A DNA stretch of 64,000 nt from Bacteroidales bacterium (GTDB lineage: Bacteria; Bacteroidota; Bacteroidia; Bacteroidales; UBA1715), in assembly GCA_017552705.1 (NCBI GenBank), contig JAFZOY010000116.1:24310-88309 (forward strand), written 5' to 3'. Position numbers and translations under genes: made by a program. The first letter of the stretch is position 1. Every line of letters starts with the position of its first letter. The notes under the pieces are model-generated. The model saw only the letters and a list, made by a program, of their open reading frames with translations. It was not told the DNA's origin and made no database searches. Shown in pieces: positions 9,687 to 62,487 of the stretch.

Positions 9687-9687
9687 A

Positions 9688-18061: not shown

Positions 18062-18073
18062 AATCATATTATT

Positions 18074-20806: not shown

Positions 20807-20822
20807 ATTTTCCTACACATAG

Positions 20823-22897: not shown

Positions 22898-22904
22898 TCG
22901 GCGA

Positions 22905-22942
22905 TTAGAGCTTTAAGTTTTTCCTCTACAAACCTAAAAACA
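22905..22942 (+). promoter_or_regulatory. Candidate preQ1-I-like riboswitch aptamer in the queF leader
   Basis: UAGAG (22906-10) pairs with CUCUA (22924-28). Loop CUUUAAGUUUUUC; A-rich tail CAAACCUAAAAACA ends at the AUG. Loop UUUA can pair with tail UAAA. Layout parallels the B. subtilis queC aptamer as I recall it. Confidence 0.3.
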
Positions 22943-23416: not shown

Positions 23417-23419
23417 TGT

Positions 23420-27311: not shown

Positions 27312-27341
27312 GTGATGTTACTTTTATCGTAGTAACATCAC
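27312..27341. terminator. Bidirectional hairpin between convergent genes
   Basis: 11-bp stem GTGATGTTACT / AGTAACATCAC with an 8-nt loop; overlaps the last codons of the giant gene. Confidence 0.5.
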
Positions 27342-33300: not shown

Positions 33301-36300
33301 GGAGCATTAATTTCTACCGTAGGAAGTGAGTGAACAAATATTTTGTCGGATGTTGATTTTACACAACCATTTTCGTCAGTATAAGTAAGAGTAACCGTAT
33401 ATTCCTTGTTTGCAGCATTTTGCGTTGGGTCGAATGATCCCGTTTTGTCATCAATCGAACCTCCATTATCAATTGTGTATGCAAAACCGTCAGGATTGCT
33501 TGTCCCTGTTGTACTCATTGTTACCACAGAACTATTGTTTCCACCTTCGCACACATCACTGTTGCTAACTGTCAACGTTGGCGTTGGCAATGGATACACA
33601 ACCATATTTATAGATGTCTCGTCGGCTTTACAGCCTTTTTCGCTTTCGAAATTATAGGTTACTTTTTGTGTTCCAGCTGCAAAATCACTTGGCTTGAACG
33701 TGGCTGTTTTTTCCGAACTTTTGGTAGCCACAGTCCAAGAACCCGTACCATCCATACCAGGCGTAATCGTTGCAGAAATAGTTTGAGCGGTAGTTTCGCT
33801 GATACAATTATTTGGATTATCGGAGTGAAGTTCAGCCGTTGGCTTTGGATTTACAATAATTTCTGCCGTACCAGTTCCTTCACAACCATTTATGTCAACT
33901 ACCCGAACATTGACAGTATAATCATTTGCCGCAGCCGTGTTCTTAAACACAGGCGTTGCCGTGCTTGTACTATTGAATTCCGCAGCAGCGGAACCCGACC
34001 ATTCAACAGTTTCGTAGGAATCAGCCAAACTTACGTTTACCGCCGTTCCTTCGCACACTTCGTCGTTTGACAAAACAATTGTCGGCAACAATTCATCGAG
34101 GACAGTCACTGTTACCGAAGAGCGTTCGCTTTCACAGCCATCAACCGACTGACTTACGTAGTAGTTGGTTCCATTTGTGGAACTTGCCGTACTCGGAGTT
34201 GGTGCTGTGGAACTTGCAGTACCGCCTGTAGCATCGGTTCCGTACCAATTCAGAACTGCCCCAGACGCTTTTGTCACATAGTTATCAAGACGTTCTGATA
34301 CAGCATCAAGACATTTTGAGAATCCTGTTGTTGTAGGTGCCGATGGAATTGGTTTTACCGTTACATCGCGGCTGACACGTTTTGCCTTACAACCCTTTGC
34401 ACTGGTAAAATCATACGTTACTGTTCCCGTAGTAGTTTCGCCGAATGACGCACTTGTTTCGGTAGCATTCGAAACATTTGAACTCCAAGTAAACGAACCA
34501 TTTTCACTTGGTTTTGCAGTAACTATTGCAGAAATAGTCGCCGTTTCTCCCGAACAAATAGCGTCAGGTTCCGACAACGTAACCGTTGGATTCGGATACA
34601 CCGTAATAGTTGCATCGCTTTCGCCATCGCATTCAGCATTTTTTACATACACGTGAACGTTGTATGTATTTATATCGCCATTCGCTGCAGGCGCGGTAAA
34701 AGTTGGCGTTGCAGAATTCACAGTCGAGCCAAAACCTTGTGTTGCCGCAGTTCCCGACCACGTTACTTCATATTGGTTAGCTTTTTCCACAGTGACATCA
34801 GTTGTCGAACCTTCGCACAATTCCGATGACGAAATTATGATTTCGGGACGAAGTTTCTTGTTTACCACTATTTCTATTGGTGTCCGCTCACTTTCGCAGC
34901 CTTTGTAGGTTTGCGATACAGAATAATTGAACACGTTGTCTGTTTGTATGCTGAACGATGGAGCCGCGTTCAATTTTGTACCGTTCGCATCGTACCACGA
35001 TAACGTACAATTTCCGTCGGCAGTTGCCTCCAATGTTTTGTTTGCCGCCGACGCGTTCATACACCATGATTTCTGGTTAGCTTCCGTTGGCGCATTCGGA
35101 TACGGATTGAAGACCAACGATAATGCATCTGGACGATCGGCTTTACAGCCTGCCGAACTTTCATAATCAACAGTCACCGATACATCTTCCTCCGACGGCC
35201 ACGCAGCAGTTTTCACCACTGTTGCGGTAGCTCCGCTTCCCGTTGCGCCAAGCCAAGCAAATGTTCCGTCCGAAACAGTCTGACCATTGATTTTTGCCGT
35301 TGCAGTCACCGAAATCGTTTCATCGCTACATACGGTGGTTTTATCCGCTGAAAGAGTTACAACAGGCTTCGATTCTATGGAAACAGCTTTTGTTGCCGGA
35401 GTGCTTTCGCACGACAATGTTGCCGTCACCATATTTGTCGCCGTAACCGAATAATCACCCGATGTTGATGCCGTAAGCGATGCGGCAGTACCACTACCCG
35501 AACCGCTCCACGAGAATGTTGCATCGCTTATGTCAGAAGATCCCGACAAAGCAACCGTTGCCGGAGAACAGACTTTTCCACTTTCCGGAACCGAAGTAAT
35601 GGCAACCGTCGGAACTTTTCCCACAACAACTTTTGCACTACCACCGTAGTTCGAGGCAGGAGCAACACAATTCGCATCCTTCAACGATTTGATTGTATAT
35701 ACATATTCCGACGAAACTTCGCCTGAGGCTACAGTTGACGACGGTGTGATTTTTCCTGAAATCGACTGGGACGAACCATTTTTCGCTGTTCCACCGTTTT
35801 CAGAATACGTATATGTGAACGGTGCCGTTCCGATAAATGTCAGCCCAATATCAGAAATGTCGTCGCCTTCGCAATATTCCCCACCAGTTCCTATCGACAT
35901 TGACGGATATGGAAGGCTGGTCACTTCGATTTCTGCCGTTTTCTGGCACGAAGTCAGCGTTGGGAATTTCACATCTTTAACCAATACCTTATATGTTCCC
36001 GCTTCCTCAATATTATTCAACGGCAACGTTGCCGCCGTTTGCGTTGCCAACACTTCGTCACCTTTATACCACGTATAGTTGAATGATGATGCATCGTCCT
36101 GCGACGTTACCGTGAACGAAACATTCTCGTTCGGACACAACGCCGTTTTTCCGCTCGGCGTGATTGTCAGCGGTTTAGGCTCCGTACACGTTGGGCAGTC
36201 CATAATCGCTTCAACCGAAGGCGAAATCGAGTAGTTTTTACAATAGTTCGTCTGTGAAAACTCCGATGTGTTTGCCAATGTTGACGCAGTTGCCGCAACC

Positions 36301-38198
36301 ACACGGAAAAATACTGATTCTCCACTTTTCACACCAGAAAAAATTGGCGATTCTTTCGGGTTTGCAATCGTATAAGTGCTGTTTTTAGATGGTGTACCGA
36401 TTTGCACCCAACTTGATTCAACATCGGGAGTTTTCGTATATTGGAATAAATACTGTAACGTCGAACCATAAAATGAAGACAACAAATTACTTGCAACAGA
36501 GCCCAGAGTAAACGGGTCGGAACAAACTTTTGTGGCACGTTCCAAGTCATCTACATTTGAAAACAAGTCCAATGCCGGAGACGAACAAGCCATAATTTTA
36601 ATGTCGTCAAAGCATATATCCTGACCGTTCGACCAGTTTTCACCCCAACTTTGAACTTCCACAACAATGTCTTCATCTTCAAGAATCAAATTATCTATTG
36701 AAATTCTGTTCCATCCTGAACCAACCCGAACTTCATAATTTTCCTTTGAAGCAAGAACATTACCTGCTGTATTTTTTATATTCAATGTTATAACAGGATT
36801 TGAACCTGCCGACATATTTCCCACATAACATTCAAATGTTAAAGCTTTTCCCTTGCACAAGTCTTTTATTGTTCGTGTGAAGATAGTCCCTTTAAATCCG
36901 CTTGTCACGTTCATAAACAAACAGGCACTATTGGAAATTCCGTTAATCATACTAGAATGGTCACTTGTAATTGCACCATTTCCAATCATCCAAGTCGCAG
37001 TTGAATTACAATTTGCATCGGTACAATAACCTATTCCTGTTGGTACAATGACACCATAGTTTCCATCGTTTATTTGACCTGCCGCATCAAACGACCCAGC
37101 AGTTGAAGGCATCGTCCAACTAACATCCGTTCGATAAGGGAAATATGACGAAGGGGTTGTGGTTGTATTTCCATTGGCATCCACATACTCATGTGTATCG
37201 GTAAAATATCCAAAATCCTCATAAAAAATGGTTTCTCGCGAAGAATATACGGTATTCCCATCAACAACAGTTTCACAACAGGTCACGGTAGTGACTTCGT
37301 AAGGGTCTGTAGCTGTTCCGTTTACAGTCGCTCTATAATACATTTTAGCAGCAGTAACTTCATCGTACATACTTGCTTTATTTGACACAGTTGACCAAGA
37401 AGAACCATTGGTTGACTTTTCCCATTTTATAACAGCATCATCACCATAATTTCTATCAAGAGTCAATAAAGTCTGTTCCCCCCGGCACATCTCAGACCCT
37501 TGTCCAGAAAGAATCTTTGGATTTATATATCCATACACCTTCAAATCGGAAATACCAATAACAGTATTTTTAGAACCATTATATCCTTCCATCATTGAAA
37601 TAGTCATACTTGTTTGACTTGATGTAAGTGTTCCTGAAAATGTAACATCTTGATACGTTCCTGTTGCAAAGCTATTTCCTTCCAACGATTTTGCGACACC
37701 GCCTTCTGCGGCTTGCATATATTGATTAAGGTTCGCTCCCACAGTCATTCCGCCAAAATAACCTAACGATGGCGTTGCCGTTGAAACAACCCAAACCCGC
37801 ATAGTTACCTTGTAAGCGGAACCCGGTTTCAATCCGTTAACAGTATATGAAAACAGCTTTGTACATGCAGTACCTGTCATGTTTGTCACAAACATTGCAT
37901 CATCTTCGTCAACATAAATACTGGTTTCATCGTTTTCATTAGTCCCCAACTTGAATGGATTATCCACACAAACCCAGTGTCCGCCTTTTTGAATACTATT
38001 ACCATCTTCCAGATAAGTTAAATTTGCCGCCAACGTGTTTCCCGCTGGACCTAATTGTTCCACCGTGGAAAAATCCCATCCCCAATCGTCATATCCTTCC
38101 TTTTGGTCAAAAGTAGTACCGCCAACAATAGCAGTTTGTCCAAACGAAACTACTGCAGTAGCAAGAATCAAACCGAATGTAATGAATATTCGTTTCAT
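27324..38198 (-). CDS. Giant (3624 aa) T9SS type-B cargo: Ig-like repeat adhesin
   Basis: Signal peptide MKRIFITFGLILATAVVSFGQ. Many modules of the type ..L.A...G..L.WY......G......YYV(S/A)Q...GCES.R..v.V. C-terminus LYVPTAFSPSN...FQPKG...ISVYDKWGNLMW...GYWDGRYEGK...DTYIWKMEATF is a gliding-motility (CHU_C/type-B) CTD. Confidence 0.85.
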   Translation of the reverse strand: MKRIFITFGLILATAVVSFGQTAIVGGTTFDQKEGYDDWGWDFSTVEQLGPAGNTLAANLTYLEDGNSIQKGGHWVCVDNPFKLGTNENDETSIYVDEDDAMFVTNMTGTACTKLFSYTVNGLKPGSAYKVTMRVWVVSTATPSLGYFGGMTVGANLNQYMQAAEGGVAKSLEGNSFATGTYQDVTFSGTLTSSQTSMTISMMEGYNGSKNTVIGISDLKVYGYINPKILSGQGSEMCRGEQTLLTLDRNYGDDAVIKWEKSTNGSSWSTVSNKASMYDEVTAAKMYYRATVNGTATDPYEVTTVTCCETVVDGNTVYSSRETIFYEDFGYFTDTHEYVDANGNTTTTPSSYFPYRTDVSWTMPSTAGSFDAAGQINDGNYGVIVPTGIGYCTDANCNSTATWMIGNGAITSDHSSMINGISNSACLFMNVTSGFKGTIFTRTIKDLCKGKALTFECYVGNMSAGSNPVITLNIKNTAGNVLASKENYEVRVGSGWNRISIDNLILEDEDIVVEVQSWGENWSNGQDICFDDIKIMACSSPALDLFSNVDDLERATKVCSDPFTLGSVASNLLSSFYGSTLQYLFQYTKTPDVESSWVQIGTPSKNSTYTIANPKESPIFSGVKSGESVFFRVVAATASTLANTSEFSQTNYCKNYSISPSVEAIMDCPTCTEPKPLTITPSGKTALCPNENVSFTVTSQDDASSFNYTWYKGDEVLATQTAATLPLNNIEEAGTYKVLVKDVKFPTLTSCQKTAEIEVTSLPYPSMSIGTGGEYCEGDDISDIGLTFIGTAPFTYTYSENGGTAKNGSSQSISGKITPSSTVASGEVSSEYVYTIKSLKDANCVAPASNYGGSAKVVVGKVPTVAITSVPESGKVCSPATVALSGSSDISDATFSWSGSGSGTAASLTASTSGDYSVTATNMVTATLSCESTPATKAVSIESKPVVTLSADKTTVCSDETISVTATAKINGQTVSDGTFAWLGATGSGATATVVKTAAWPSEEDVSVTVDYESSAGCKADRPDALSLVFNPYPNAPTEANQKSWCMNASAANKTLEATADGNCTLSWYDANGTKLNAAPSFSIQTDNVFNYSVSQTYKGCESERTPIEIVVNKKLRPEIIISSSELCEGSTTDVTVEKANQYEVTWSGTAATQGFGSTVNSATPTFTAPAANGDINTYNVHVYVKNAECDGESDATITVYPNPTVTLSEPDAICSGETATISAIVTAKPSENGSFTWSSNVSNATETSASFGETTTGTVTYDFTSAKGCKAKRVSRDVTVKPIPSAPTTTGFSKCLDAVSERLDNYVTKASGAVLNWYGTDATGGTASSTAPTPSTASSTNGTNYYVSQSVDGCESERSSVTVTVLDELLPTIVLSNDEVCEGTAVNVSLADSYETVEWSGSAAAEFNSTSTATPVFKNTAAANDYTVNVRVVDINGCEGTGTAEIIVNPKPTAELHSDNPNNCISETTAQTISATITPGMDGTGSWTVATKSSEKTATFKPSDFAAGTQKVTYNFESEKGCKADETSINMVVYPLPTPTLTVSNSDVCEGGNNSSVVTMSTTGTSNPDGFAYTIDNGGSIDDKTGSFDPTQNAANKEYTVTLTYTDENGCVKSTSDKIFVHSLPTVEINAPTEICYNAAAATITATVSPTGGSGVWTGTASSTDPSFNPATKPTGENEIKYVYTDPYKCQNETTVKTTVAKVDAPTVGPTQTVLITGDQASGSDELTATASEAGDVIQWLEDETGGDVIETGTSYSMGADETTPVGSYKFAVREYRMVNNKECYSDSTIATLVVSACEALAPVASDIYVCRSEGDATKTLKAERNASSTISASHISWLDADPVGENGSDFDSHVKSGVGANVIEYEVTNPASAIQDFVYYAAEYDEINNCWSAGTKVTVHVVDTPSVTITSPEDICAYGDQAVPVTVNPHTGTLTASEGTVSGFSWIPGDYNTNSDKLTTTLTYVVESSPYNDGTTCTSTVKSTTTAHFMEAPIANPKTWLIGDIEHLPNLTGEFTSTGVEMTWYANASANQSSELQSASNSVEYAPDKTALAAATVGLTSYTKSYWITQTDGNGCESKPSEVVLSLVDCPWSAPAPDDVVRCSSESLPDITVSASGNVETMAVGGKATKWLWYSAENQSTPLETQTVNDNSSSYAHGVGNVVSENTTTTFYVSYMAVESSSGQECESPKAKVTVTVNALPEITVDDVLMCYAQGKTIVSATVNGTSSTMITSGGEWTLDGETTNIAASTGEIDPTFGGQTDGNYTIQYTYTDANGCTNSDDATLVVEYPDVPSTDTYIGMTSNPIPVVLTAKDIEDDASAVSWFRTETSRNELSGNANPWTVDASIINPAEQTGAEGMSLYVSQTVNGCVSERAEQKISIVDCPWTVETVTDAETCEGVAFAEGMVATANSGADPTEWSWSTTAELNSIAGMSGTSSTFTQNNIDEPGTTTYFVRYKAYYEAGRQSCWSEPREIRSTVYSNPTVSFEASDPTSVCHSSGDVRIRVRAVAGNNGGDVENTLEETLWTTTGVDGSFATTTESYAYFSASKQDSKTDIYSIAYKAVDNKGCVGTAERQLRVIYLPKPETEGFYAMTSQKNDVVVKVTSAVESGASIHWFDYESGMSPDVRKNKTDNGDGTTWNTGLPYDRETERTYYARQYDGSAECYSEATEAVVRLVPCPIPNVIVDAPVACVYDVASGAATLTAATGTTDSWNERDGSLSQFRFYASVDATDFAVGDELGKFDPKNAVATANVYPYYVSEYNLLPLQGLTNPEGCEGRKVKTTVTIIETQAPIITPANDAVCEGETDKLSFKATYNGMGTGAVWFEEDPGEYGIPSIDGSSVQMTFNPTGDEPNDYTIYAVRFENDCYSEKASATYTIKPIPTAPEVFGSETCEGTDTVISARGADGAVLSWYSDASGNTFLGKGSTYQPKVSDVNEYVYYVAQTVNGCQGPLAPVVYEIKMIPNAPSFKNPGNLCEYDAAPTLVAEPREGMTVKWYVADELIADGEELMLSQSDMTAGAKRYSVTQTLRSCESDKANVIFNVYSKPNSPRVSGASVCEGDTLIPTLATDFATDAWYNDADAQVLVAKGYTYTPDPGEVGNKDVIYYVVREQRGCFSDTIPDTLHVIARPTFTIGEDTVLCIYDSVLTIQAKNYVPAITDLSFVEWSVSNGTQSKKYADNEEHSVTPTNMITAVGDYVISARYVYRSDVATCRSDVQEMTYSVKARARKPLVFSTLICQGEDIDELRSLGSPNTVWNSLDGTLPEVWHGQSYRFQPGQRLDTGSYRFEIYDMNMYAIDEEDETNSLGCESERDTITLVVAPGANTHLIGRDSVCMGSIGESYYTQYSENSQYFWTVTGNHLNYSKDAMSTSVRYIDWLEPGVDTLIVYEQTWAGCEGFDTLVVQIAPAPVAHFNWSMPGSTNVIELKDSTVQDSLWTTDELGEPIALPIEYTMAWNFGHQGADESYVDTVLSFNQRNFPIYEGGYLYGYNCPILTVTNDFGCTSTYTECIFVNLSSSLYVPTAFSPSNPAHAVRTFQPKGFNLQTCEISVYDKWGNLMWFSNEVKDGMFVGYWDGRYEGKMAESDTYIWKMEATFLDGQVWQGFDAGNGKTVKYGSVMLLR

Positions 38199-52388: not shown

Positions 52389-52407
52389 TATCTATTGTTT
52401 AGTTTTG

Positions 52408-52415
52408 CAAAAATA
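52408..52415 (-). promoter_or_regulatory. -7 box TATTTTTG of ahcY
   Basis: TAnnTTTG match 20 nt upstream of ATG 52388. Confidence 0.5.
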
Positions 52416-52704
52416 CAAAATTGCACCTAAAATCATACATGATTTATCGCTTTGTACATATCATTGCCAATTTTGCTTTTTAAACGACCAGAGGAAAAAT
52501 TGTTCGTTGCGGATTTTTCCAGAAAAAATCGCCGATACTTTGTGAAAGCGTATCAAAATCATACAACTTTCATAGGTTATTGGCGATGGAGTTATTTTGT
52601 ATATTGAACATTTATGTGATTATCTTTTTATTCTTCAAAAAGAAATGATATAGAAAAAAAACTTATTTTTGAAGAACGATTCTAAAACATTATTTTGAAT
52701 ATTA

Positions 52705-55230
52705 ATGAATAATGGTGTCAAAATAGGTGTAATAATTGCGACATCCATGTCTCGTACAGACGAACTGTTCGGAATGTCTTTAAACTCCGTGTTGAAACAA
52801 ACCTTGCAGCCAGAGTGTATTGTCGTGGTTGATGACAACAATGACAGCAAAATCTCCGAAATTATAAAAAATCAAATAGAAGGCATCGAAAACCCATCTA
52901 TTCACTATATCAAAAACATACGTACCAAAAATATGTCGGGAACAGGTGCATGGAACACAGGTGTCGATTATTTGACTGAAAAACTAGGCTATGATAGCTT
53001 TTTTGCAATCTTGGACGATGACGACAGTTGGGATAACAAATATTTGGAAACCGTTTGTAAGACCATTAATAACAACCCTGACTCTATCGCCGTTTTTGCA
53101 TTTTTAAAACGTAGCGATTGCGAATCCGAATCAAAAATTACTAATGAAGACTTAACCGTAGATAGTTTTCTCATTGGAAATCCTGGCATTCAGGGGTCCA
53201 ACATGTGTTTTAAAATACACAATTTTAGGAGCATTGGCGGTTTTGACGAAAACCTTGCAAGCTGCACAGACCGGGATCTGATGATAAGGTTTTTGCAAAA
53301 TAATGACAAAAACAACATCTCAATTATTCCACAAAAACTTGTCAATCATTTTACATCTGACAAAACAGTAACATCTAATTTCGAAAAGAAAAAAGCAGGA
53401 TTAGATTATTTTTATAAAAAATATATTGATCTATTTGATTTTCCTGTCTTGGACAAGTCATTATTAAGGGCAGAAAAGTTTTTTCATTATGACGGACGTG
53501 CAAACATTGAAAAATTATATCGGCAGACACATCCAGTTTTAATAACAGGCGTTTGCGGCTTCATAGGCTCACATATCGCTCAACAACTGATTAGTCTTGG
53601 CTATTCTGTTGTTGGTATTGACGATTTAAGTACAGGCACCATTGTAAATGTTAGCAAGTTAAGGAGAAACGTCAATTTTGAATTGCACATTTTTTCATTA
53701 CTTGATAATAAAAAATTGGACGAATTATTTGACAAATACAATTTTAATGCGGTTTTACATTGTGCGGCACTGCCAAGAATCAAATACTCAATGGATTATC
53801 CCAACGAAAGTTTTTGCGCAAACGTTACAGCAACGAAAAAACTTGCCGAAATTAGCCGGAAACACCACATAAAAAGATTTGTATTCTGTTCATCATCATC
53901 TGTTTATGGAGAATGTCAAAACGTCATAATGAATGAAAATGATGATCTTCGTCCGATTTCACCATATGCCAAGCAAAAAGCAGAAGCGGAACAAATCTTG
54001 GCAAAAACATTTGAGAACAGCGAAACAATTCTGCTGATTTTCAGACTTTTCAACGTATATGGTTTTTCGCACCAACCTACCAACATATATTCAACATTGG
54101 TCAACAACTTGATAAACAATGCCATATACAATGAGCAGCTGACAGTAAACGGCAATGGTATGCAAAAACGAGATTTTACGTATGTTGGTGACGTCGTAGA
54201 CGCTTTTGTTAAAGCTTTGGAGTTTTTTGATTCTAAAAACCACGTCAACATAATCAACATCGGAACAGGCACAAACCATTCTGTAAACGAAGTAGCAGAT
54301 TATGTAAGTCAGATTACAGGTAGAAAATATACAATACAAATCAATGTTGAGCCATCATTTACATTAGCAGATAATAGTTTGGCAGACAAAATGTTAAATT
54401 GGAAACCGCAAACCGCCATCATATCAGGGCTCAAAACGGTTTATAAACAAACTGTGCAAAACCAAATCATTGCAATAGGCATAGCAATGCACAACAATGC
54501 TTCTACAATTCGTCGATGCCTTAAATCTGCACTTGGACAGGCCAACTGCAAACGCAAATTACTCTTTGTTTTGGCAGACGACCAATCTTCAGACAATTGG
54601 AATGATGAAATTGCTGATTTGCTAAATGACGAAAGAATAATAGTGATGCATTTACAAAACTCCAATGTTGTAAAAACTCGCAATATGATCAATGATTACA
54701 TCAAATCTAAAATTGGAAATGTGGCACTAATTGGACGGCTGGACGCAGATGACGAATATGCATCAAAAACCGTTTTGGCTGAAATAGAGAGTATTTATGA
54801 CACGGAAAATCCTGATTTGATTCTTGCAGGAAATTACCTAAGACAAAACGGGAATATAATCCAAAGAAAAAATCTTGCTGTAAAAGATTTGGCAAACATT
54901 GATTATGTTTTGAAACGGTTGAAACAAATGTCAGAAAATAATGCCGAAGGAGAACTGCCATCATGCAATCTGATTGCAAAACCTAAAGTTCTCATACAGT
55001 ACCCTGACATCCGTAGTGGCGAAGATCATGCATTATTGGTGCATTACCTAATCAACCAGGACAAATACAAATTGTATTTTGCAGAAGATTTGCTTCTAAC
55101 AATATACAATCTTGGAGGTAACACAACATCTAAAAATATTAAAACACAAAAGCATAAAATTTGTCGTGAGCAATTATATAAAAACACATTGGAATTATGC
55201 AAAATGAAAAAAGAAAGCAAAAGGCAATAG
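52705..55230 (+). CDS. Tri-domain fusion: GT2 glycosyltransferase - NAD-dependent sugar epimerase/dehydratase (SDR) - GT2 glycosyltransferase (841 aa)
   Basis: N-terminal GT-A: IGVIIATSMSRTDELFGMSLNSVLKQT..IVVVDDNND, FAILDDDDSW. SDR: VLITGVCGFIGSHI, SSSSVYG, YAKQK. C-terminal GT-A: IAIGIAMHNNASTIRRCLKSALGQ, VLADDQSSD, RLDADDEY. Confidence 0.8.
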   Translation: MNNGVKIGVIIATSMSRTDELFGMSLNSVLKQTLQPECIVVVDDNNDSKISEIIKNQIEGIENPSIHYIKNIRTKNMSGTGAWNTGVDYLTEKLGYDSFFAILDDDDSWDNKYLETVCKTINNNPDSIAVFAFLKRSDCESESKITNEDLTVDSFLIGNPGIQGSNMCFKIHNFRSIGGFDENLASCTDRDLMIRFLQNNDKNNISIIPQKLVNHFTSDKTVTSNFEKKKAGLDYFYKKYIDLFDFPVLDKSLLRAEKFFHYDGRANIEKLYRQTHPVLITGVCGFIGSHIAQQLISLGYSVVGIDDLSTGTIVNVSKLRRNVNFELHIFSLLDNKKLDELFDKYNFNAVLHCAALPRIKYSMDYPNESFCANVTATKKLAEISRKHHIKRFVFCSSSSVYGECQNVIMNENDDLRPISPYAKQKAEAEQILAKTFENSETILLIFRLFNVYGFSHQPTNIYSTLVNNLINNAIYNEQLTVNGNGMQKRDFTYVGDVVDAFVKALEFFDSKNHVNIINIGTGTNHSVNEVADYVSQITGRKYTIQINVEPSFTLADNSLADKMLNWKPQTAIISGLKTVYKQTVQNQIIAIGIAMHNNASTIRRCLKSALGQANCKRKLLFVLADDQSSDNWNDEIADLLNDERIIVMHLQNSNVVKTRNMINDYIKSKIGNVALIGRLDADDEYASKTVLAEIESIYDTENPDLILAGNYLRQNGNIIQRKNLAVKDLANIDYVLKRLKQMSENNAEGELPSCNLIAKPKVLIQYPDIRSGEDHALLVHYLINQDKYKLYFAEDLLLTIYNLGGNTTSKNIKTQKHKICREQLYKNTLELCKMKKESKRQ

Positions 55231-58200
55231 AACTGCTCACCGAAATGGGATTAAAGAATCTCGAGTATCTCGGTCAGGGCAGTGAAGGCATAGTCTTTCA
55301 CGATGACGTCTCTGTTTACAAAGTACTTTCCCAACAGAAACGGGACAAAGTCGAAATTTATAGACGTCTATCTTTTTTCTTCAACATATCGTCATCTGGT
55401 TATTTTTACAAGCTTGATGACTTGATTGAATATGGCGACTTCTTCATCGAAAAATACAAGTATGAGCCGAGTACTCCCTGCGATAACATTTCAGAGAAGG
55501 AAGCCATTGAATTTTTGACAGAATGCTGGCAAAATCATTTTGTAATAAAAGATTGTAAAATAAAAAATTTTGTCAGAACGGGCCATCATATAAAACTCAT
55601 TGATATGGATGCATGCAGTTATAACGATAACTTATTCTTAAACATGTGCATTCGCATGTATCTTTTTATCAATTATAAAAACACAATGGATTCAGCTTCT
55701 TTTCAGAGGCTCAAACGAAGCGCCATAAACAATTTTGACTTACCTGAATTAAAAGGTGCAAAGAAATTCATCAATAAAGTTTTCGCCCATATCATCCATC
55801 AAGAATCTCTCTCTGAGATTTCAAAATTCAAAGTACCAGAAGACTTTAGCGGCGATTTATACACTTGCAACACCCTTCCAAATTTGGACAAGTTATTATT
55901 CCATAAAATCAAATGCGGCAGGTTCATAGAAGACATCATCATATCCGACTTAACTTTGAACGACAAACTATATTTTGAACCCCAAAAAATCGGATTAATC
56001 TACCGGGAACTCCTCCCGCTAAAAGATAAGGTCTCATTGCTCATAAAAACCTGTCCGCAAGACATTCCGACCATAGAAGCAAATATAAAGCACATCGTAA
56101 GGCAACTTTCCTCACCGAATCCGTTCTATGAGGTTGTTGTCTCTATTGACACCAAAGAGGCGAATTTTCTGAGGGAATACAATTCTACGGGCAATCTGAC
56201 AAAACTCGTTGAAATCGTACAGAAGCTTGTTGATGACAAGGTCATCGACAGATTTATCGTGTTTGACGCAACAAAAACCGAAGAAATAAATGAGAGATGG
56301 TTCGGCTTAAAATCCAATCAGGCACACACAACAAAAAACATTCCTGTCAGTTCGCAACTTTCCGCCTTTGAACAATGCCAAGGCGATTATGTTCTGCAAT
56401 GCGATTGCGATGTCCTTATCGGCCGAAAGGACTTTACTCATTCCTTCTTAGAAGACATGCTCTCAGAATTGAAACAAAACGAAAAAGTTCTTTTCGTCGG
56501 TTTCAATATATACAATCAGGAGTCTAAGCCCTATTTCGGATTCGAAAATGGTGGTTTCGTTCCCGAAGTGAGATTTGGCCTATTCAAAAAAGAACGCCTG
56601 TTCGCTTTGAGGCCATTCCCCAACAGTGTTGATAAAGAAGGGCGCCTGGAATTGTCTTGGTACCGTTCCATAGAGCAGTTCCAAAAACAATCGGGATACT
56701 GTTCTATTCGCGGTGGTGACAACCGTAGTTTCTATATACACCCCCAGAATTATCGCAAGACAGAGCCATATGCGTGGATGACTATTCTCGACAGAGTCGA
56801 ACAGCTGCAAATTCCTGATATTCAGTATGGTGGTTTTGATTGCGAAGGCTCTTTCTACGATTGGACTGCTCCAAGAAGAGCCGAAAAAATGATTGTTGTT
56901 TCTTGCTTTAGAAATATGCCCATTGATCGTTTTTTACGATTCTGGTGTTCGCTTATGAGTCAAGACTTTCAAGATTTTGGGATAATTTTATGCGACAACG
57001 GTTCTGACAATGGAACGCCTTTCTTGATAGAGCGGCTCATTCAGCCCTACAAAGATCGCATCACTTTCATTCGTTCTAGAGTTGTTCTGCCGAAAATACA
57101 GTTGGTATACCAAGCCATACACTATTTCTGCAATAACCAGCAAAGTGTCATTGCCATGATCGATGGGGATGATGCACTAATAGGGAAAAACACATTCAGT
57201 GACATCTATAGTAAATACGACACATGGTACATTGATGCATCTGTTGGCAGAGTTTACCAGACATGCCACCTACAACCACATTACCAATATCCTGCAAACT
57301 TCATTAATCCCCGAGGTACTGATGGAGGTAATGTATGGCAACCGTTGAGAACATTCCGAAAATATCTCTTTGATTCTATTCCATTAACTCACTTCAAATA
57401 CAGATCTTTTAACAAGATAAAACTCAATAGGAATCCTTGGCTTGAAGAATATGACGACTGCGCCATGATGATTCCAATTATAGAGATGAGCAAATCTCCT
57501 TTGCAAATGGACACCATCAACTATTTTGACGAATTCCATAATGAAGGTTTCATTTCGAATACCTCGTGTATTTCCGAAATATTGAGCAAACCTAGACTCA
57601 ATCCAAATAACGTTTTCATTGGCCGTCAATCATTCAGACCCGATTTTGAGCGGATAGAAATAGATCTTACCTATGACTGCAACCTGAAATGTCTAGGATG
57701 TAATCGATCCTGCGGACAAATGCCGTCAAAAGAACAATTGCAATTGCAGGATATCAGGGATTTTATAAATGATAGCGTTAAATTAGGCAAGAAGTGGAAA
57801 CATATCAATGTCCTTGGCGGGGAACCCACCTTACATCCGAATTTTGAAGAAATCATGGTGTTACTGCAACAATATATTGATGAACATTCCCCTAATACAA
57901 CCATACAGGTCGTCTCCAATGGTATCGCAAAGAAATCAAGAGAACTATGCGAGAAGATAAAAGCAGAATGCAAAAATGTAAGCATTGACTATGATTCTTA
58001 CAAAAACAACAACAAAATTGAATTTTTTTCTTCTTTCAATGACGCTCCCATTGACGACGAGAACTTTAAAAATGCAGATTACACAAAATCCTGCTGGGTA
58101 ACGAGCTATTGTGGCATCGGTTTGACAAGCCGAGGATATTATGCTTGCGCGGTATGCGGAGGCATTGACCGCGTACTTGATGAACACAATGGTGCAAAAA

Positions 58201-58379
58201 TTTTCTCGGAATTAACCGAAGAAAAATTAAGGGAACACTACAACAAATTTTGCAGACTTTGCGGAAATTACAAAGCCTATGCGCAGAATTTTGGAAATTT
58301 CATCCTTCGTTGTGAAAAGGAACCATTCAAAAACATCATTTCCAAATCATGGGGAAAACTATACGACAATCTATCCTGA
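55197..58379 (+). CDS. Four-domain fusion: protein-kinase-like - GT-A - GT-A - radical SAM with Cys-rich C-terminus (1060 aa)
   Basis: Kinase-like: GQGSEGIVF, VYKV, IKDCKIKNF, LIDMD. GT-A: DYVLQCDCDVLIG. GT-A: IILCDNGSDN, AMIDGDDALIG. Radical SAM: DLTYDCNLKCLGCN (TGC at 57678), VLGGEPTLHP. C-terminus: CWVTSYCG..YYACAVCGG..FCRLCGNY. Overlaps the upstream gene by 34 nt. Confidence 0.75.
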   Translation: MQNEKRKQKAIELLTEMGLKNLEYLGQGSEGIVFHDDVSVYKVLSQQKRDKVEIYRRLSFFFNISSSGYFYKLDDLIEYGDFFIEKYKYEPSTPCDNISEKEAIEFLTECWQNHFVIKDCKIKNFVRTGHHIKLIDMDACSYNDNLFLNMCIRMYLFINYKNTMDSASFQRLKRSAINNFDLPELKGAKKFINKVFAHIIHQESLSEISKFKVPEDFSGDLYTCNTLPNLDKLLFHKIKCGRFIEDIIISDLTLNDKLYFEPQKIGLIYRELLPLKDKVSLLIKTCPQDIPTIEANIKHIVRQLSSPNPFYEVVVSIDTKEANFLREYNSTGNLTKLVEIVQKLVDDKVIDRFIVFDATKTEEINERWFGLKSNQAHTTKNIPVSSQLSAFEQCQGDYVLQCDCDVLIGRKDFTHSFLEDMLSELKQNEKVLFVGFNIYNQESKPYFGFENGGFVPEVRFGLFKKERLFALRPFPNSVDKEGRLELSWYRSIEQFQKQSGYCSIRGGDNRSFYIHPQNYRKTEPYAWMTILDRVEQLQIPDIQYGGFDCEGSFYDWTAPRRAEKMIVVSCFRNMPIDRFLRFWCSLMSQDFQDFGIILCDNGSDNGTPFLIERLIQPYKDRITFIRSRVVLPKIQLVYQAIHYFCNNQQSVIAMIDGDDALIGKNTFSDIYSKYDTWYIDASVGRVYQTCHLQPHYQYPANFINPRGTDGGNVWQPLRTFRKYLFDSIPLTHFKYRSFNKIKLNRNPWLEEYDDCAMMIPIIEMSKSPLQMDTINYFDEFHNEGFISNTSCISEILSKPRLNPNNVFIGRQSFRPDFERIEIDLTYDCNLKCLGCNRSCGQMPSKEQLQLQDIRDFINDSVKLGKKWKHINVLGGEPTLHPNFEEIMVLLQQYIDEHSPNTTIQVVSNGIAKKSRELCEKIKAECKNVSIDYDSYKNNNKIEFFSSFNDAPIDDENFKNADYTKSCWVTSYCGIGLTSRGYYACAVCGGIDRVLDEHNGAKIFSELTEEKLREHYNKFCRLCGNYKAYAQNFGNFILRCEKEPFKNIISKSWGKLYDNLS

Positions 58380-59287
58380 TTACAGGTGTTTCTGGTTTTA
58401 TCGGCAGAAGTCTTGTTGAAGAAATTGTTAATCGGGATTTTTCATGGACAATCTACGGCATTGACATAAAAGAACCTGTTTTAAATGATTCCAAATATCG
58501 CAAATACATTGATTTTAGTATAGTTGATATTCGCGACGAAAATGCAGTTGAAACGTATTTTCTTGAACATCAATTTGACGGTGTTATACATCTTGCCGCC
58601 ATCAGTAGAGTTGTTGATGCAGAAAATAACAAAAAAAATTGTATTGCTACAAATTACTGGGGTACGAAATATATTGTGGAAAATGTAGCAAAACAACAAA
58701 ATACCTGGTTTATATTCGGTAGTAGTCGTGAAGTATATGGTGAACAAAAGGTGCTTCCCGTCAAAGAATCTGCAAATAAGAATCCCATTAACATCTATGG
58801 AGAATGCAAGTTAAAAGGTGAATTATTGGTCAAAGAGTTAATAAAAAAATACGTTATACTTAGATTCTCAAATGTGTATGGCAACAACTACGATATTGAT
58901 GGCCGCGTAATACCAACTTTCGTCAAGAGGGCTTTGGCAGGAGAAACGCTATATCTTGAGGGAGGTCAGCAAGTGATTGATTTTACGTATATTCAAGATA
59001 CTGTTGATTGCATAATAAGAATTGCAGAATTGTTACAAAATGGAACTATTCATTCGGATGAATTACATATTAGTCCTGGCAATGAAAACAAAATTACTGA
59101 CATTATCTCTTACTTGGAGAAACTTCTAAATAAGAATATTAATATTGAGATTCGAGAAAAACGAAACTATGATGTGGTACGATTTATAGGTGACACATCG
59201 CATAGATTAGATATTTTGGATGTGTCAGAATTTAAATGTTTATCGAAAGGCCTCGAGTTATATTTACAATCTTTCCCATTGTCATAA
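58349..59287 (+). CDS. NAD-dependent sugar epimerase/dehydratase (SDR)
   Basis: ILITGVSGFIGRSLV, GSSREVYGE, YGECKLKGE (YxxxK). Overlaps the upstream gene by 31 nt. Confidence 0.85.
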   Translation: MGKTIRQSILITGVSGFIGRSLVEEIVNRDFSWTIYGIDIKEPVLNDSKYRKYIDFSIVDIRDENAVETYFLEHQFDGVIHLAAISRVVDAENNKKNCIATNYWGTKYIVENVAKQQNTWFIFGSSREVYGEQKVLPVKESANKNPINIYGECKLKGELLVKELIKKYVILRFSNVYGNNYDIDGRVIPTFVKRALAGETLYLEGGQQVIDFTYIQDTVDCIIRIAELLQNGTIHSDELHISPGNENKITDIISYLEKLLNKNINIEIREKRNYDVVRFIGDTSHRLDILDVSEFKCLSKGLELYLQSFPLS

Positions 59288-59376: not shown

Positions 59377-59407
59377 AAAGAGCAGCCTCATGAAGAGACT
59401 GCTCTTT
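59377..59407 (-). terminator. Hairpin terminator between convergent units (better T-run in minus sense)
   Basis: AAAGAGCAG (59377-85) / CTGCTCTTT (59399-407), 13-nt loop. In minus sense it is followed by TTTTTTAT. Confidence 0.6.
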
Positions 59408-59551: not shown

Positions 59552-59881
59552 TTATAGATTCCTATTCCACGATTGTTTTTTCTCAATATTACAATCGTTA
59601 CCGTCTTTGTTTATTCCAGAAGAAATAATTGTATTATATTGGGGATAATTGTCACCCTTTTCCAAGTTATTTCTCCAATGAAGGGGTTGTAAATTTTCAA
59701 GAGAGTCATCACCTCCTTGTGATATGGGAATTATATGATCAATAGTCCAACCAAAATCAGTTTGTTTCCCATAATCATCCCATTTAATCCACGCTCCAGC
59801 AAGATCTTGTCGCCAAATTGCAGGGTTAAAACGTTTTATTTTCGCTTGTTCCCAAATCAGTTTCTTTTTATTTTCTGTCAT
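59552..59881 (-). CDS. Small HNH endonuclease
   Basis: GWTIDHIIPISQGGDDSLENLQPLHWRNNLEKGD (H-N-H motif). Own TATTTTTG box at 59911-59918. Confidence 0.8.
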   Translation of the reverse strand: MTENKKKLIWEQAKIKRFNPAIWRQDLAGAWIKWDDYGKQTDFGWTIDHIIPISQGGDDSLENLQPLHWRNNLEKGDNYPQYNTIISSGINKDGNDCNIEKKQSWNRNL

Positions 59882-59961: not shown

Positions 59962-60939
59962 TTATTGTGTAAGCCAATGTATTGGGATAATATATTGCCC
60001 TTGCTTTTCCAAATCAATTTTTCTTATGGCAAAATATTGTTGTGTTGTTGACAATGTGAGAATAATAGGATTAATTTTTTCAAAGATAATCTTCTTTACT
60101 TTTTTTATTATAATCTTTTTTTCTCGCCATTCATGTAACTTTTTCCGTGCATTTTCTATTTTAGGGGAATCATTCTCTATTACCAGTTTATATTGTTTTA
60201 GAACTTCTTCACAGAATGATTCGGTTTCAAACCAACTATCATAAAATATACGTTTATAATATAATACACCATAGATCGCTCTGATTTTCGGCTCAAGTTT
60301 TATTAGAATTTTTTCATATTCGTAATCCACATTTTTTAATTTGACACAAAAATCATTATTTTTAAAAGTTGTTTGAATCTTCAGTGGCTCTGTTAATTTA
60401 GGATTGTAATCAAGAAACTGTAGTGTAGAACTGCCAAAAGAAAGAAACTTTTCGCCTATGTCGTTTAAAATTACACCAGCATTATATTTTTCTGCACTAT
60501 CATCACCTTTTTTGCTGCCAAATAGAACAAGTAGAGGAGCTTTGAGACTAGGATCGGAAATTTCTACACGTTTCAATGTAGTTTTTCCTGTCAAAAAGTC
60601 AATATAAAATTCATCTGGGTATTCTTCAAACAATTTGCTCACGTGTTTATGCTTTCGAACATTCATTTTATATTCACTTTTAAAAAATAAAGTATAGATG
60701 AACATAAATTGCAATATATCAATCGCTTTTTGCTCTTTAGGACAGGGTATAAATGTTTTGCTACCAAACGAAAATAGCACTGTCAAAAATTGCATCGCAT
60801 ATGTTTTCAATTCGGGAGTTAAGTATTTTATATCAACAACATTATCCCCAACATCAATGCGTAATACATCTATGCTTTCTGGATTTTTTAATTTAAATTT
60901 AGCCATTTTAGTTTTTTTCTCATCTATGTCAATTATCAT
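59962..60939 (-). CDS. Hypothetical protein, 325 aa, no recognisable motif, extremely AT-rich
   Basis: Long ORF with ATG 60939 (alternative MAKFKLK at 60906). Lys/Ile/Phe/Tyr-rich. No Walker or nuclease motif seen. Confidence 0.5.
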   Translation of the reverse strand: MIIDIDEKKTKMAKFKLKNPESIDVLRIDVGDNVVDIKYLTPELKTYAMQFLTVLFSFGSKTFIPCPKEQKAIDILQFMFIYTLFFKSEYKMNVRKHKHVSKLFEEYPDEFYIDFLTGKTTLKRVEISDPSLKAPLLVLFGSKKGDDSAEKYNAGVILNDIGEKFLSFGSSTLQFLDYNPKLTEPLKIQTTFKNNDFCVKLKNVDYEYEKILIKLEPKIRAIYGVLYYKRIFYDSWFETESFCEEVLKQYKLVIENDSPKIENARKKLHEWREKKIIIKKVKKIIFEKINPIILTLSTTQQYFAIRKIDLEKQGQYIIPIHWLTQ

Positions 60940-61137: not shown

Positions 61138-62487
61138 ATGAAAGGTAAAATACATCGTCAAGCGTTTGAGTTTCTTCAAGAATGGAGAAACAGCGACAGC
61201 AGAAAACCTTTGATATTAAGAGGTGCACGGCAAGTGGGGAAAACCACACTTGTTAAGCACTTTGCCGAAACTTACGCTGTGTTTATACATCTGAATCTTG
61301 AAAAAAGGGAAGACCGCAATTTGTTTGAAATGACTGACAATGTGAATCAACTCATTGCGAACATTTTCGTCCGTGAAGGCGTAAGGCAAGATGCAAAGAA
61401 TGTTTTGCTTTTCATTGATGAAATACAAAATTCCAAACCAGCAGTAGCAATGTTGCGGTATTTTTACGAGGAAAGGTATGATCTTCACGTAATTGCCGCT
61501 GGTTCGTTGCTCGAAACGGTTATGGATGTAAGACGGATCTCGTTCCCGGTGGGAAGGGTGCAGTTTATGTCGCTCAAGCCGTGTTCATTCGTTGAATTTC
61601 TCGATGGAATGGATTTAGTTCAGGAAAAGGAGTTTGTCGAACAAGTTGATGTCCCATGGGTTATACACGAACGTGTGATGCGACATTTTAGGGAATATAC
61701 CATTGTTGGAGGTATGCCCGATGCGGTGACACAATATGCTGCTACACATGACCATCAGGCAATAAGCACTGTTTATGAAAGTTTGTTGCAAACATATAAG
61801 GACGATGTGGAAAAGTACTCGTCGAGTGCGACAATTATACGTACCATCCGTTCTATATTGAATGTGGGTTGGAATAGTGCCGCAGAAATAATTTCGTTTG
61901 AAGGATTTGGTGAGACGGCATATCGCTCCCGAGAAATGAGCGAGGCGTTCCAAATCATATCAAAGGCAATGCTTTTGGAACTTGTGTATCCTACATCCGA
62001 AACTCGTCTGCCAATTGCACCAAATTATCGCCGTCGTCCTAAGCTGTTGTGGCTCGATACAGGACTTGTCAATTATGCCGCTGGCGTTCAAAAAGATGTT
62101 TTTCTTGCTGATGACATACAGGATATTTGGCGAGGAAGAATAGCGGAACACGTTGTTGGACAAGAACTTATAGCAAACAGGACAGAGGTTTCGGCACATC
62201 GTTCATTTTGGCATCGCGACAAACAAGGAGCTTCGGCTGAAGTAGATTTTATTTATCCATATCAGGGGTTGCTTGTGCCTGTTGAGGTCAAATCGGGACA
62301 TAATGCTCATTTAAAATCGTTACATCTTTTTATGAACGAAGCACCTCATAACATTGCAGTTAGAGTTTGGTCGAAGCCGTTTTCCCGTGATGAGGTAAAG
62401 ACTTCGCACGGAAAAACTTTCAAGTTGCTCAACGTGCCATTTTATTATGTAGGTCAACTTGAAAAAATATTGCAAAAGGAAATATAG
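61138..62487 (+). CDS. AAA+ ATPase of the AAA_14/DUF4143 type with C-terminal PD-(D/E)xK-like motif
   Basis: Walker A GARQVGKTT, LLFIDEIQ, C-terminal AEVDFIYPYQGLLVPVEVKSG. Confidence 0.8.
   Translation: MKGKIHRQAFEFLQEWRNSDSRKPLILRGARQVGKTTLVKHFAETYAVFIHLNLEKREDRNLFEMTDNVNQLIANIFVREGVRQDAKNVLLFIDEIQNSKPAVAMLRYFYEERYDLHVIAAGSLLETVMDVRRISFPVGRVQFMSLKPCSFVEFLDGMDLVQEKEFVEQVDVPWVIHERVMRHFREYTIVGGMPDAVTQYAATHDHQAISTVYESLLQTYKDDVEKYSSSATIIRTIRSILNVGWNSAAEIISFEGFGETAYRSREMSEAFQIISKAMLLELVYPTSETRLPIAPNYRRRPKLLWLDTGLVNYAAGVQKDVFLADDIQDIWRGRIAEHVVGQELIANRTEVSAHRSFWHRDKQGASAEVDFIYPYQGLLVPVEVKSGHNAHLKSLHLFMNEAPHNIAVRVWSKPFSRDEVKTSHGKTFKLLNVPFYYVGQLEKILQKEI

Follow-up and report, generated by a model that had tools for sequence, protein, structure and literature searches.

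A six-domain glycosyltransferase, kinase-like and radical SAM cassette in a Bacteroidales bacterium and its possible link to 7-deazaguanine

INTRODUCTION

What could be produced by three overlapping genes that together encode glycosyltransferases, short-chain dehydrogenase/reductase (SDR) domains, a kinase-like domain and a radical S-adenosylmethionine (SAM) domain? We addressed this question for a cassette at positions 52705–59287 of a 64,000-nucleotide stretch of DNA from a Bacteroidales bacterium (contig JAFZOY010000116.1, forward strand), hereafter called the window; all coordinates refer to it. The genes, in which GT2 denotes a glycosyltransferase family 2 domain, are as follows.

52705–55230, plus strand: P1 gene, 841 amino acids (aa), GT2-SDR-GT2
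55197–58379, plus strand: P2 gene, 1060 aa, kinase-like, GT2, GT2, radical SAM
58349–59287, plus strand: P3 gene, 312 aa, extended SDR

An earlier reading, made from the letters of the DNA without database searches (the sequence-only reading), had described a compact operon of soluble multidomain enzymes in three overlapping plus-strand open reading frames (ORFs), and its coordinates proved exact: P1 and P2 overlap by exactly 34 nt, and P2 and P3 by exactly 31 nt. It had also reported the absence of a transmembrane segment, and we found none in P1–P3; the highest 19-residue Kyte–Doolittle mean was 1.48, compared with 2.45–2.88 in the membrane-protein controls of the window.

We tentatively propose, with slightly less than even confidence, that the cassette encodes a cytoplasmic megasynthase. 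Starting from a free 7-deazaguanine base, it would make a glycoside that is phosphorylated and tailored by radical chemistry, probably as part of microbial conflict or phage defence. The parts of this proposal differ in strength. The product is probably a cytoplasmic glycoconjugate that is not exported; the case for 7-deazaguanine as the substrate is about evenly balanced; and the defence or conflict role, taken by itself, is possible and somewhat doubtful.

RESULTS

Conservation and spread of the six-domain core

We assigned the domains of the three proteins by Pfam and NCBIfam searches, AlphaFold2 (AF2) models and Foldseek comparisons, which confirmed the layout given in the sequence-only reading.

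52705–53520, plus strand: GT2a, P1 residues 1–272 (PF00535, 55 bits)
53521–54450, plus strand: inserted extended-SDR domain, an optional module, P1 residues 273–582 (PF01370, 1.9e-56)
54451–55230, plus strand: GT2b, P1 residues 583–841 (PF00535, 46.4 bits)
55197–55826, plus strand: kinase-like domain, P2 residues 1–210 (Ser/Thr kinase fold by Foldseek)
55827–56021, plus strand: small alpha/beta linker domain, P2 residues 211–275 (no family match)
56022–56876, plus strand: GT-A1, a divergent GT2 domain, P2 residues 276–560 (PF00535, 23.8 bits; cut-off, 23.3)
56877–57596, plus strand: GT-A2, P2 residues 561–800, forming a tandem pair with GT-A1 (PF00535, 34.2 bits)
57597–58379, plus strand: radical SAM domain with a Cys-rich C-terminal extension, P2 residues 801–1060 (PF04055, 1.6e-10)
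58349–59287, plus strand: P3, a stand-alone SDR of the NAD-dependent epimerase/dehydratase family, an accessory (PF01370, 1e-41)

Domain-by-domain tblastn searches at all loci gave one fixed core order: GT2a, an SDR domain in some, GT2b, kinase-like, GT-A1, GT-A2 and radical SAM. More than 350 relatives of P2 were found, many of them full-length, at 46–89% identity, and the relatives of P1 were similar in number. The loci comprised 49 from a scan of one genome per species and 80 from a metagenome scan. The 49 genome loci came from Bacteroidales, Lutibacter, Chitinophagales (including the complete chromosome of Phnomibacter sp. MR), Campylobacter, Treponema, Fibrobacter, Opitutales, Gamma- and Deltaproteobacteria and an archaeal metagenome-assembled genome (MAG). 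Across all six core domains, the catalytic motifs were invariant or nearly so.

The number of ORFs per cassette varied by lineage: one (1580–1900 aa), two as observed here, or three to four. Because the ORF borders shift at domain edges across phyla as the domain order stays the same, the fusions are natural and are not frameshift or assembly artefacts, a possibility that the sequence-only reading had raised against itself. Four independent metagenome contigs of the same organism showed an identical P1-P2-P3 gene structure. Three loci (L002, L003 and L048) have the cassette as one isolated gene of 1587 aa, surrounded by housekeeping genes.

The distribution of the cassette is patchy over at least eight phyla, at 33–89% identity, and this patchiness, together with a low GC content (described below), argues for horizontal acquisition, as had been suggested from base composition. 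The cassette is a horizontally mobile, self-contained and soluble six-domain core. We also considered a phage- or plasmid-borne element and rejected it: no cassette was present in 50,697 phage records, and IMG/VR contained stand-alone radical SAM homologues only. Two further copies were observed. In Salinivibrio, a 607-kb replicon carries a distant variant with unfused genes, next to IS110 and ISAs1 elements, and the archaeal MAG (L049) carries, at 16600–19450 on the minus strand, a second and partly degraded GT-A1/GT-A2/radical SAM copy on the opposite strand, a few kb from its intact cassette.

Linkage of the cassette to 7-deazaguanine supply genes

After clustering the ORFs of all loci, we compared the 129 ORFs immediately flanking 39 non-redundant loci with Pfam and PADLOC. 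The most frequent families among them were Vut_1/YhhQ (8), QueC (6), type I restriction-modification (R-M) methyltransferase (4–6), HsdS (3) and UDP-glucose dehydrogenase (3). The YhhQ neighbour passed the NCBIfam equivalog for the queuosine precursor transporter (151.5 against a cut-off of 50.95) and the QueC neighbour that for 7-cyano-7-deazaguanine synthase (175.8 against 150.3). The cassette-linked QueC scored as canonical QueC, reaching 26.7 bits with the QatC model, for which the cut-off is 280. Both genes were always on the same strand as the cassette and abutted or overlapped its ORFs (gaps, –53 to +2 nt). In an enlarged neighbour set of 132 loci, YhhQ (n = 20) was always directly upstream, and QueC (n = 20) was directly downstream in 14 cases and directly upstream in 6. 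One or the other was present at 27 of the 72 loci with at least 1 kb of flanking sequence on both sides, and both at none of the 72.

The fact that YhhQ and QueC never occur together suggests that they are interchangeable means of preQ0 supply. Since these unrelated proteins share preQ0 supply alone and are mutually exclusive, their linkage provides strong comparative evidence for a requirement for a 7-deazaguanine base. The sequence-only reading had guessed at a small-molecule or nucleotide acceptor in the cytoplasm, among other possibilities, and such an acceptor fits operonic partners that supply a free base. It had also asked whether the set of three genes is conserved and what accompanies it: the six-domain core is conserved, the SDR parts are not, and QueC or YhhQ co-occur at some loci. 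In the same survey, no conserved cluster of small ORFs adjoined the cassette, and a system producing ribosomally synthesized and post-translationally modified peptides was rejected.

The cassette of the window carries neither QueC nor YhhQ as an accessory. About 28 kb away, the window holds the following operon.

22799–24630, plus strand: queF-queC-queE operon (queE at 24073–24630)

The queF (preQ1 synthase; 168.6 bits) and queC (183.3 bits) products scored above their cut-offs, and the Cx14CxxC-type QueE (163.8 bits) scored below its own. From this operon, it appears that the host itself makes preQ0 and preQ1.

Sister classes sharing the kinase-like domain

Two further classes of proteins (loci L140–L147) share the kinase-like domain. 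Class B proteins (1150–1960 aa) are colinear with the cassette (GT2a ... kinase-like ... GT-A1-GT-A2), with 25–42% identity per domain; their kinase-like domain is followed by a class I methyltransferase, and a radical SAM domain is absent. A SLOG LDcluster4 gene came next in all four loci that were looked up. The SLOG proteins retain GGxGG and GGGxGTxxE motifs, which are those of LOG-type nucleotide phosphoribohydrolases, enzymes that release free bases. Class B genes stand alone in conflict-type surroundings: an nSTAND NTPase gene in some cases, and genes for an SNF2 helicase and an MmeI-type methyltransferase in others. Class C (P0284) consists of a protein with GT2 and kinase-like domains, followed by a fusion of GTP cyclohydrolase II with NADAR (GCHII-NADAR), an Asn-synthase-like amidotransferase and an SDR. 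The RibA and NADAR families, as a pair, would be expected to give a free GTP-derived base.

The LOG-like, GCHII-NADAR and QueC/YhhQ partners are therefore predicted, from what has been published on the LOG, RibA and NADAR families, to be sources of free purine-derived bases. One scaffold would thus occur in three classes, each with a different free-base source, and in this way the sister classes support the base-dependence of the cassette.

The linkage to QueC and YhhQ would likewise fit hypermodification of nucleic acids, in which a glycan would be built on queuosine or preQ1 at tRNA position 34, or on 7-deazaguanine in DNA, and the linked genes would secure the base. Eukaryotes have galactosyl- and mannosyl-queuosine. 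The 4-epimerase domain between the two GT2 domains of P1 could make UDP-Gal, and the eukaryotic Q-galactosyltransferase B3GNTL1 is a member of family GT2. Embedding in type I R-M operons (see below) would suit the marking of DNA, and one preprint reports that phage glycosyltransferases put multi-sugar glycans on DNA bases (bioRxiv 10.1101/2023.12.21.572611). We nevertheless consider this explanation rather improbable. No base-exchange enzyme resembling tRNA-guanine transglycosylase (TGT) or DpdA and no recognizable RNA- or DNA-binding domain was found in or beside the cassette, and the sister classes have partners with an expected base-releasing activity, none of them a nucleic-acid enzyme. 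Moreover, the use of four transferases together with a kinase and a radical SAM enzyme on one tRNA position would have no precedent.

Glycosyltransferase and SDR domains

The AF2 model of P1 (68 homologues) had a mean predicted local distance difference test (pLDDT) score of 92.9 and a predicted template modelling (pTM) score of 0.86; that of P2 (74 homologues) had values of 91.9 and 0.89. The sequence-only reading had counted five GT-A domains. When the sequences were cut into pieces, four regions scored at or above the PF00535 gathering score of 23.3 and contained a DxD motif, and the number was thus reduced to four. The DxD motifs of the four domains were invariant or at least 90% conserved, and GT-A folds were present in both models.

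GT2a, found at all loci, has a DDDD motif (D104–D107) that was invariant in 68 homologues, and its sequence match to PmHS2 was weak (E = 0.0023). Public gene calls begin P1 at Met15 (52747), giving 827 aa. Since the conserved first beta-strand KIGVIIAT begins at residue 6, upstream of Met15, we regard the ATG at 52705 as the true start. GT2b follows GT2a at every locus and has an invariant R678-L-D680-x-D682-D683 motif. In P2, GT-A1 is the best-conserved domain between loci (38–72% identity), with invariant Q401-x-D403-x-D405 (DxD) and HPQNYRK motifs; GT-A2 matched the SpsA structure in sequence, and its DGDDA motif (656–660) was at least 90% conserved. The linker preceding GT-A1 has AF2 elements of high pLDDT: strands at 220–222, 242–250 and 264–271 and a helix at 230–239.

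The SDR domain of P1 has the motifs G282xxGxxG and Y421xxxK and scored 187 bits against the GalE equivalog TIGR01179 (cut-off, 262). By Foldseek, it resembled UDP-Glc, UDP-GlcA and UDP-GlcNAc 4-epimerases (template modelling score, 0.91; root-mean-square deviation (rmsd), 1.9 Å; 29% identity), and its model matches the UDP-hexose 4-epimerase type. P3, with motifs G13xxGxxG and Y150xxxK, gave similar scores with the GalE (113.9 bits), RmlB and RmlD models, each below its cut-off. Accordingly, the earlier description of two SDR epimerases held for the P1 domain and was not confirmed for P3. The P1 insertion was confined to one Bacteroidales subgroup, and most lineages lacked it. A P3-type orthologue (47% identity) was seen at the Opitutales locus L006 only; elsewhere, an SDR of a different type was located downstream or upstream of the cassette, or none was present. 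The SDR enzymes, previously presented as core parts, are optional accessories that other lineages dispense with.

A Foldseek search of P2 against the PDB placed the Escherichia coli K4 chondroitin polymerase K4CP first (E = 1.8e-16, about 700 columns) and the Pasteurella heparosan synthase PmHS2 next (1e-7), followed by TarS, SpsA and WrtF. These folds raise the alternative of an ordinary ABC-transporter-type surface polysaccharide synthase. Such an enzyme would build a repeat-unit glycan on undecaprenyl phosphate, with WbdD-like phosphorylation and a SAM-dependent cap, and the genes for initiation and export (Wzm/Wzt, Kps) would lie unlinked. The two best folds belong to capsule polymerases in which GT-A domains occur in tandem; the UDP-hexose 4-epimerase and UDP-glucose dehydrogenase found as accessories parallel kfoA and kfoF; in the sister proteins, a class I methyltransferase is fused with the kinase-like domain, which is the activity pair of WbdD; and the cassette at L006 adjoins GT4 and sugar-activation genes.

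We consider this alternative unlikely, however, for several reasons. Genes for export and initiation normally cluster with polymerases, and no transporter, flippase, polymerase, chain-length regulator or initiating transferase was among the recurrent neighbour families of the 39 non-redundant loci. No phosphoglycosyl transferase family was found among the cassette neighbours, a search covering linked genes, which an unlinked housekeeping WecA-type enzyme would escape; and no export machinery (Wzx/Wzy/Wzz, Wzm/Wzt, KpsMT/DE) was found among the clusters of the 132-locus set or at 44–64 kb of the window. The cassette also occurs as a lone gene among housekeeping genes or inside type I R-M operons, and its carriers (Bacteroidota, Campylobacter, spirochaetes, Fibrobacter and an archaeal MAG) differ in their envelopes and lipid primers. 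The identity to K4CP is just 12–14%, with an rmsd of 25 Å over the two-domain alignment, and a polysaccharide would give the operonic QueC, YhhQ and SLOG partners no role. The view that the locus is not a capsule or O-antigen cluster was therefore upheld at the 39 loci, and no characterized capsule or lipopolysaccharide locus type matched it.

Kinase-like and radical SAM domains

The kinase-like domain has the bilobal fold of the protein-kinase-like superfamily, with CaMKII and Aurora among its Foldseek matches (E about 4e-7). G28, K42, N124 and D136 were invariant among the 74 homologues, and a few members have another residue in place of the catalytic-loop Asp119. No Pfam match was obtained with the first 270 residues of P2, even at E ≤ 10. 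A phmmer search of 1.84 billion representative proteins with the kinase-like domain gave just 120 matches (44 at E ≤ 1e-10), and all those examined, 9 of them with Pfam and about 80 with domain BLAST, were multi-GT2 proteins.

An N-terminal Ser/Thr protein kinase fold with intact catalytic residues could also belong to a machine that glycosylates proteins of the host or of a phage in the cytoplasm, either in the manner of a giant-virus-like capsid-glycan machine or as a toxin-like effector that would inactivate an essential protein after sensing by the kinase domain. A viral fold library gave many giant-virus and caudoviral multi-GT-A proteins, and the defence-island context would be compatible with such a function. 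These viral matches are at the level of the fold only (9–15% identity), and no full cassette was found in phage genomes or IMG/VR. In addition, no conserved candidate gene for an acceptor protein or a precursor peptide was found nearby, and the QueC, YhhQ, SLOG and GCHII-NADAR partners would be left unexplained. We thus consider protein glycosylation very unlikely.

The radical SAM domain scored 41.9 bits with PF04055 (cut-off, 29.5), and its C828xxxC832xxC835 motif was invariant in 74 sequences. Downstream of this motif, C966, C984, C1019 and C1022 were invariant and C972 was at least 90% conserved; the spacing differs from that of canonical SPASM domains, and no SPASM Pfam match was obtained. 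Four invariant cysteines and one nearly so, in addition to CxxxCxxC, suggest an auxiliary Fe-S cluster. In a comparison of the profile with solved structures, GDGT-MAS, CteB, viperin and BtrN were nearest, weakly, and among named families the core matched the pVip and MoaA models best. Two identities were rejected. A fused QueE was excluded because no QueE was among the NCBIfam matches, QueE structures matched at E = 1.8 and the real queE lies elsewhere in the window. For pVip, the NF038283 score was 36.5 bits against a cut-off of 180, covering model positions 7–122 of 281, and the PADLOC pVip model matched the N-terminal half only.

Stand-alone homologues of the entire radical SAM domain, including the Cys-rich C-terminus (26–40% identity), were observed on IMG/VR contigs of up to 675 kb (L054–L133; for example, L064, 9044–10633). 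Several of these viral genes directly adjoin SDR epimerase/dehydratase genes, which hints that the subfamily acts on nucleotide sugars.

Association with restriction-modification and defence genes

An arrangement in which the cassette lies between hsdM and hsdS was observed in Phnomibacter (L040), a Chitinophagaceae MAG (L036) and a Prolixibacteraceae MAG (L047), with GmrSD-type genes and hsdR downstream. In Phnomibacter sp. MR, for instance, hsdM, the cassette, hsdS, two GmrSD-like genes and hsdR form a tight same-strand array (5900–21837 of the locus). In Lutibacter, the cassette is near BREX genes or hsdM, and PDC-S01 ATPases border it in the window and in Fibrobacteraceae (L032). The R-M and defence genes around the cassette are suggestive of a defence-island or mobile-cargo context.

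A more far-reaching possibility is that the cassette is the founding example of a new conflict or defence class, in which a free modified purine base would be converted to a phosphorylated, radical- or methyl-tailored glyco-nucleoside analogue that poisons or marks phage nucleic-acid metabolism, as a backup layer inside type I R-M operons. The product might then be misused by phage DpdA/TGT enzymes or polymerases, and the sister classes would start from bases released by SLOG or GCHII-NADAR proteins. We regard this possibility as unlikely at present.

Proposed pathway

We return to the proposal of a glycoside built on a free 7-deazaguanine base. In this pathway, the four GT2 domains, arranged in two tandem pairs like those of bifunctional glycosaminoglycan polymerases, would transfer sugars from UDP-sugars. 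The fused 4-epimerase domain and the P3 SDR would adjust the UDP-sugar pool, and some other lineages add a UDP-glucose dehydrogenase. The kinase-like domain would phosphorylate the growing product, and the radical SAM domain, likely with an auxiliary Fe-S cluster, would carry out one radical tailoring step on a sugar or a nucleotide-like moiety. Judging from the operon partners, the acceptor or key building block may be a free 7-deazaguanine base, preQ0 or a close precursor, supplied here by the host queF-queC-queE genes and elsewhere by the cassette-linked QueC or YhhQ. The product would be a glycosylated nucleobase or nucleoside-like glycoconjugate that is kept in the cell or acts on nucleic-acid metabolism. 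Its role might be microbial conflict or anti-phage chemical defence, as suggested by the repeated placement in type I R-M operons and defence islands; this is the weakest step.

Several observations weigh against this proposal. With respect to the chemistry, we know of no precedent for a GT2 (GT-A) enzyme that N-glycosylates a free base, and the glycosyltransferase annotated in the huimycin cluster (see below), where preQ0 is the aglycone, belongs to PF13439, a family other than GT2. Four transferase domains and a K4CP-like tandem fold would suit a polymer no less than a small glycoside. With respect to the base supply, QueC or YhhQ was present in only about 38% of well-flanked loci, and the rest would need host genes, which were checked for this window alone. 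The regions preceding the operons with YhhQ or QueC gave no preQ1 riboswitch at the gathering score (nine loci) or in E-value scans (two upstream regions). SLOG domains can be ligand sensors, as in ThsA, and not base-releasing enzymes. With respect to the defence role, no model of PADLOC-DB 2.0 matched P1 or P3, and P2 showed generic pVip similarity only, at the level of radical SAM enzymes; placement in defence islands is equally typical of any mobile cargo.

Base composition and surroundings of the cassette

The GC content of the P1–P3 block was 0.368, compared with 0.414–0.427 in the flanks; by gene, it was 0.354 (P1), 0.389 (P2) and 0.335 (P3), compared with 0.40–0.47 in neighbouring genes. 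The sequence-only reading had called the block AT-rich relative to its flanks on the basis of hand counts in single 60-nt lines (18/60 and 29/60), which were exact. The AT-rich island reaches approximately 61.1 kb, beyond P3, and takes in an HNH gene and a gene for a 314/325-aa protein. An exact-match AhcY search for an island-free sister strain, which would give the insertion borders, returned the same contigs and nothing else. The features bounding the operon are as follows.

52389–52704, plus strand: upstream intergenic gap of 316 nt, AT-rich, after the divergent ahcY; presumed promoter and 5′ leader of the operon
59377–59407, no strand assigned: hairpin with a 13-bp stem flanked by A and T runs (terminator scan)

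No Rfam family and no riboswitch was detected in the leader. A sigma-70 promoter scan of the locus gave background levels only, the sigma-70 model being unsuited to Bacteroidota. The hairpin is located between the convergent P3 and HNH genes and was the sole convincing terminator, none comparable being found between P1, P2 and P3; from its sequence, it is likely to be a bidirectional terminator that closes the operon.

Beyond the hairpin, the minus strand carries the gene for the HNH endonuclease (59552–59881, 109 aa) and that for the 314/325-aa protein (59962–60939; GC content, 0.29), which had no family match in Pfam or PADLOC. Both lie between the cassette and a PDC-S01 (AAA_14/DUF4143) ATPase gene (61138–62487, 449 aa; PADLOC-DB 2.0). 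These three genes possibly form a small defence module within the same AT-rich island. The window also carries the atp operon, infB-nusA-rimP, ahcY and lysC. At 27324–38198 on the minus strand, a single ORF of 3624 aa has a signal peptide and Ig-like modules in repeats and encodes a giant surface adhesin of Bacteroidota; its C-terminal region resembles, as judged by eye, the type IX secretion/gliding-motility type.

DISCUSSION

If the proposed pathway is true, the cassette would represent a widespread and undescribed enzyme assembly line, with carriers that include Bacteroidales of the rumen and gut, Campylobacter, Treponema, Flavobacteriia from marine habitats and an archaeal MAG. It would constitute a third bacterial use of preQ0, besides tRNA/DNA modification and protein deazaguanylation, and would link 7-deazaguanine metabolism to glycosyltransferases. 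Across the three sister classes, the pairing of base-supplying enzymes with GT2-kinase megasynthases may point to a family of glycoconjugates built on nucleobases, which could act as antivirals, signals or antimetabolites. If the product is instead a polysaccharide, a four-transferase polymerase with built-in kinase and radical SAM tailoring would still be new in glycobiology. The cassette is compact (about 5–6.5 kb), cultured carriers are available (Campylobacter sp. 10_1_50, Treponema pedis, Lutibacter citreus and Phnomibacter sp. MR), and Escherichia coli has the preQ0 pathway.

We found no published description of this architecture in the literature; the SLOG-linked sister class may figure in the 2015 NAR paper on SLOG clades, and a 2026 survey of the QueC family contains no occurrence of the term 'glycosyl'. 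The enzyme superfamilies are all known, and what is absent from the nearest known concepts is the GT2 megasynthase together with the kinase-like and radical SAM domains.

The huimycin and dapiramicin clusters combine a preQ0 aglycone with one or more glycosyltransferases, sugar-tailoring SDRs and QueC-type supply (PMC7439116; bioRxiv 10.64898/2026.04.15.718813). They differ from the cassette in that they come from actinomycetes and encode the full FolE/QueD/QueE/QueC set along with an O-methyltransferase and just one glycosyltransferase, annotated as PF13439; they contain no GT2 megasynthase and no kinase-like or radical SAM tailoring domain, and are not known from defence islands. QueC-family genes also occur in anti-phage or R-M contexts in Dpd, QatABCD and the Cap9/Cap10 genes of type IV CBASS, where 7-deazaguanine is used outside tRNA (PMC10164549; PMC13279940; bioRxiv 10.1101/2025.04.06.647259). 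Near the cassette, in contrast, neither a TGT-like DpdA or Cap10 nor QatABD nor Dpd helicases are encoded, and those systems have no glycosyltransferase. The pVip proteins are similar in that they are radical SAM enzymes in defence islands that act on nucleotides, whereas the radical SAM domain of the cassette ends in a Cys-rich part of its own and forms one protein with glycosyltransferases.

Among polymerases, K4CP (PDB 2z86, 2z87) and PmHS2 (8vh7, 8vh8) likewise contain two GT2-type GT-A domains in one soluble polypeptide, and both they and the cassette are accompanied by supply genes for a UDP-sugar 4-epimerase and UDP-glucose dehydrogenase. The low identity noted above (12–14%) is coupled to a different domain orientation (rmsd about 25 Å), and the cassette has no kps export genes nearby; it adds a second GT2 pair, the kinase-like and radical SAM domains and the operonic QueC or YhhQ.

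WbdD is the kinase-methyltransferase chain terminator of the E. coli O9a O-antigen. It resembles the cassette in combining a protein-kinase fold with a SAM-using enzyme in cytoplasmic glycan assembly, and the likeness extends to class B, in which the kinase-like domain is joined to a class I methyltransferase. There is no detectable sequence relation, WbdD being absent from the PDB sequence matches and the top Foldseek matches; the cassette lacks a coiled coil and wzm/wzt neighbours, and its SAM enzyme is a radical SAM enzyme. Among the sister proteins of the cassette, class B differs from it in having a methyltransferase instead of the radical SAM domain and a LOG-like SLOG partner instead of QueC or YhhQ.

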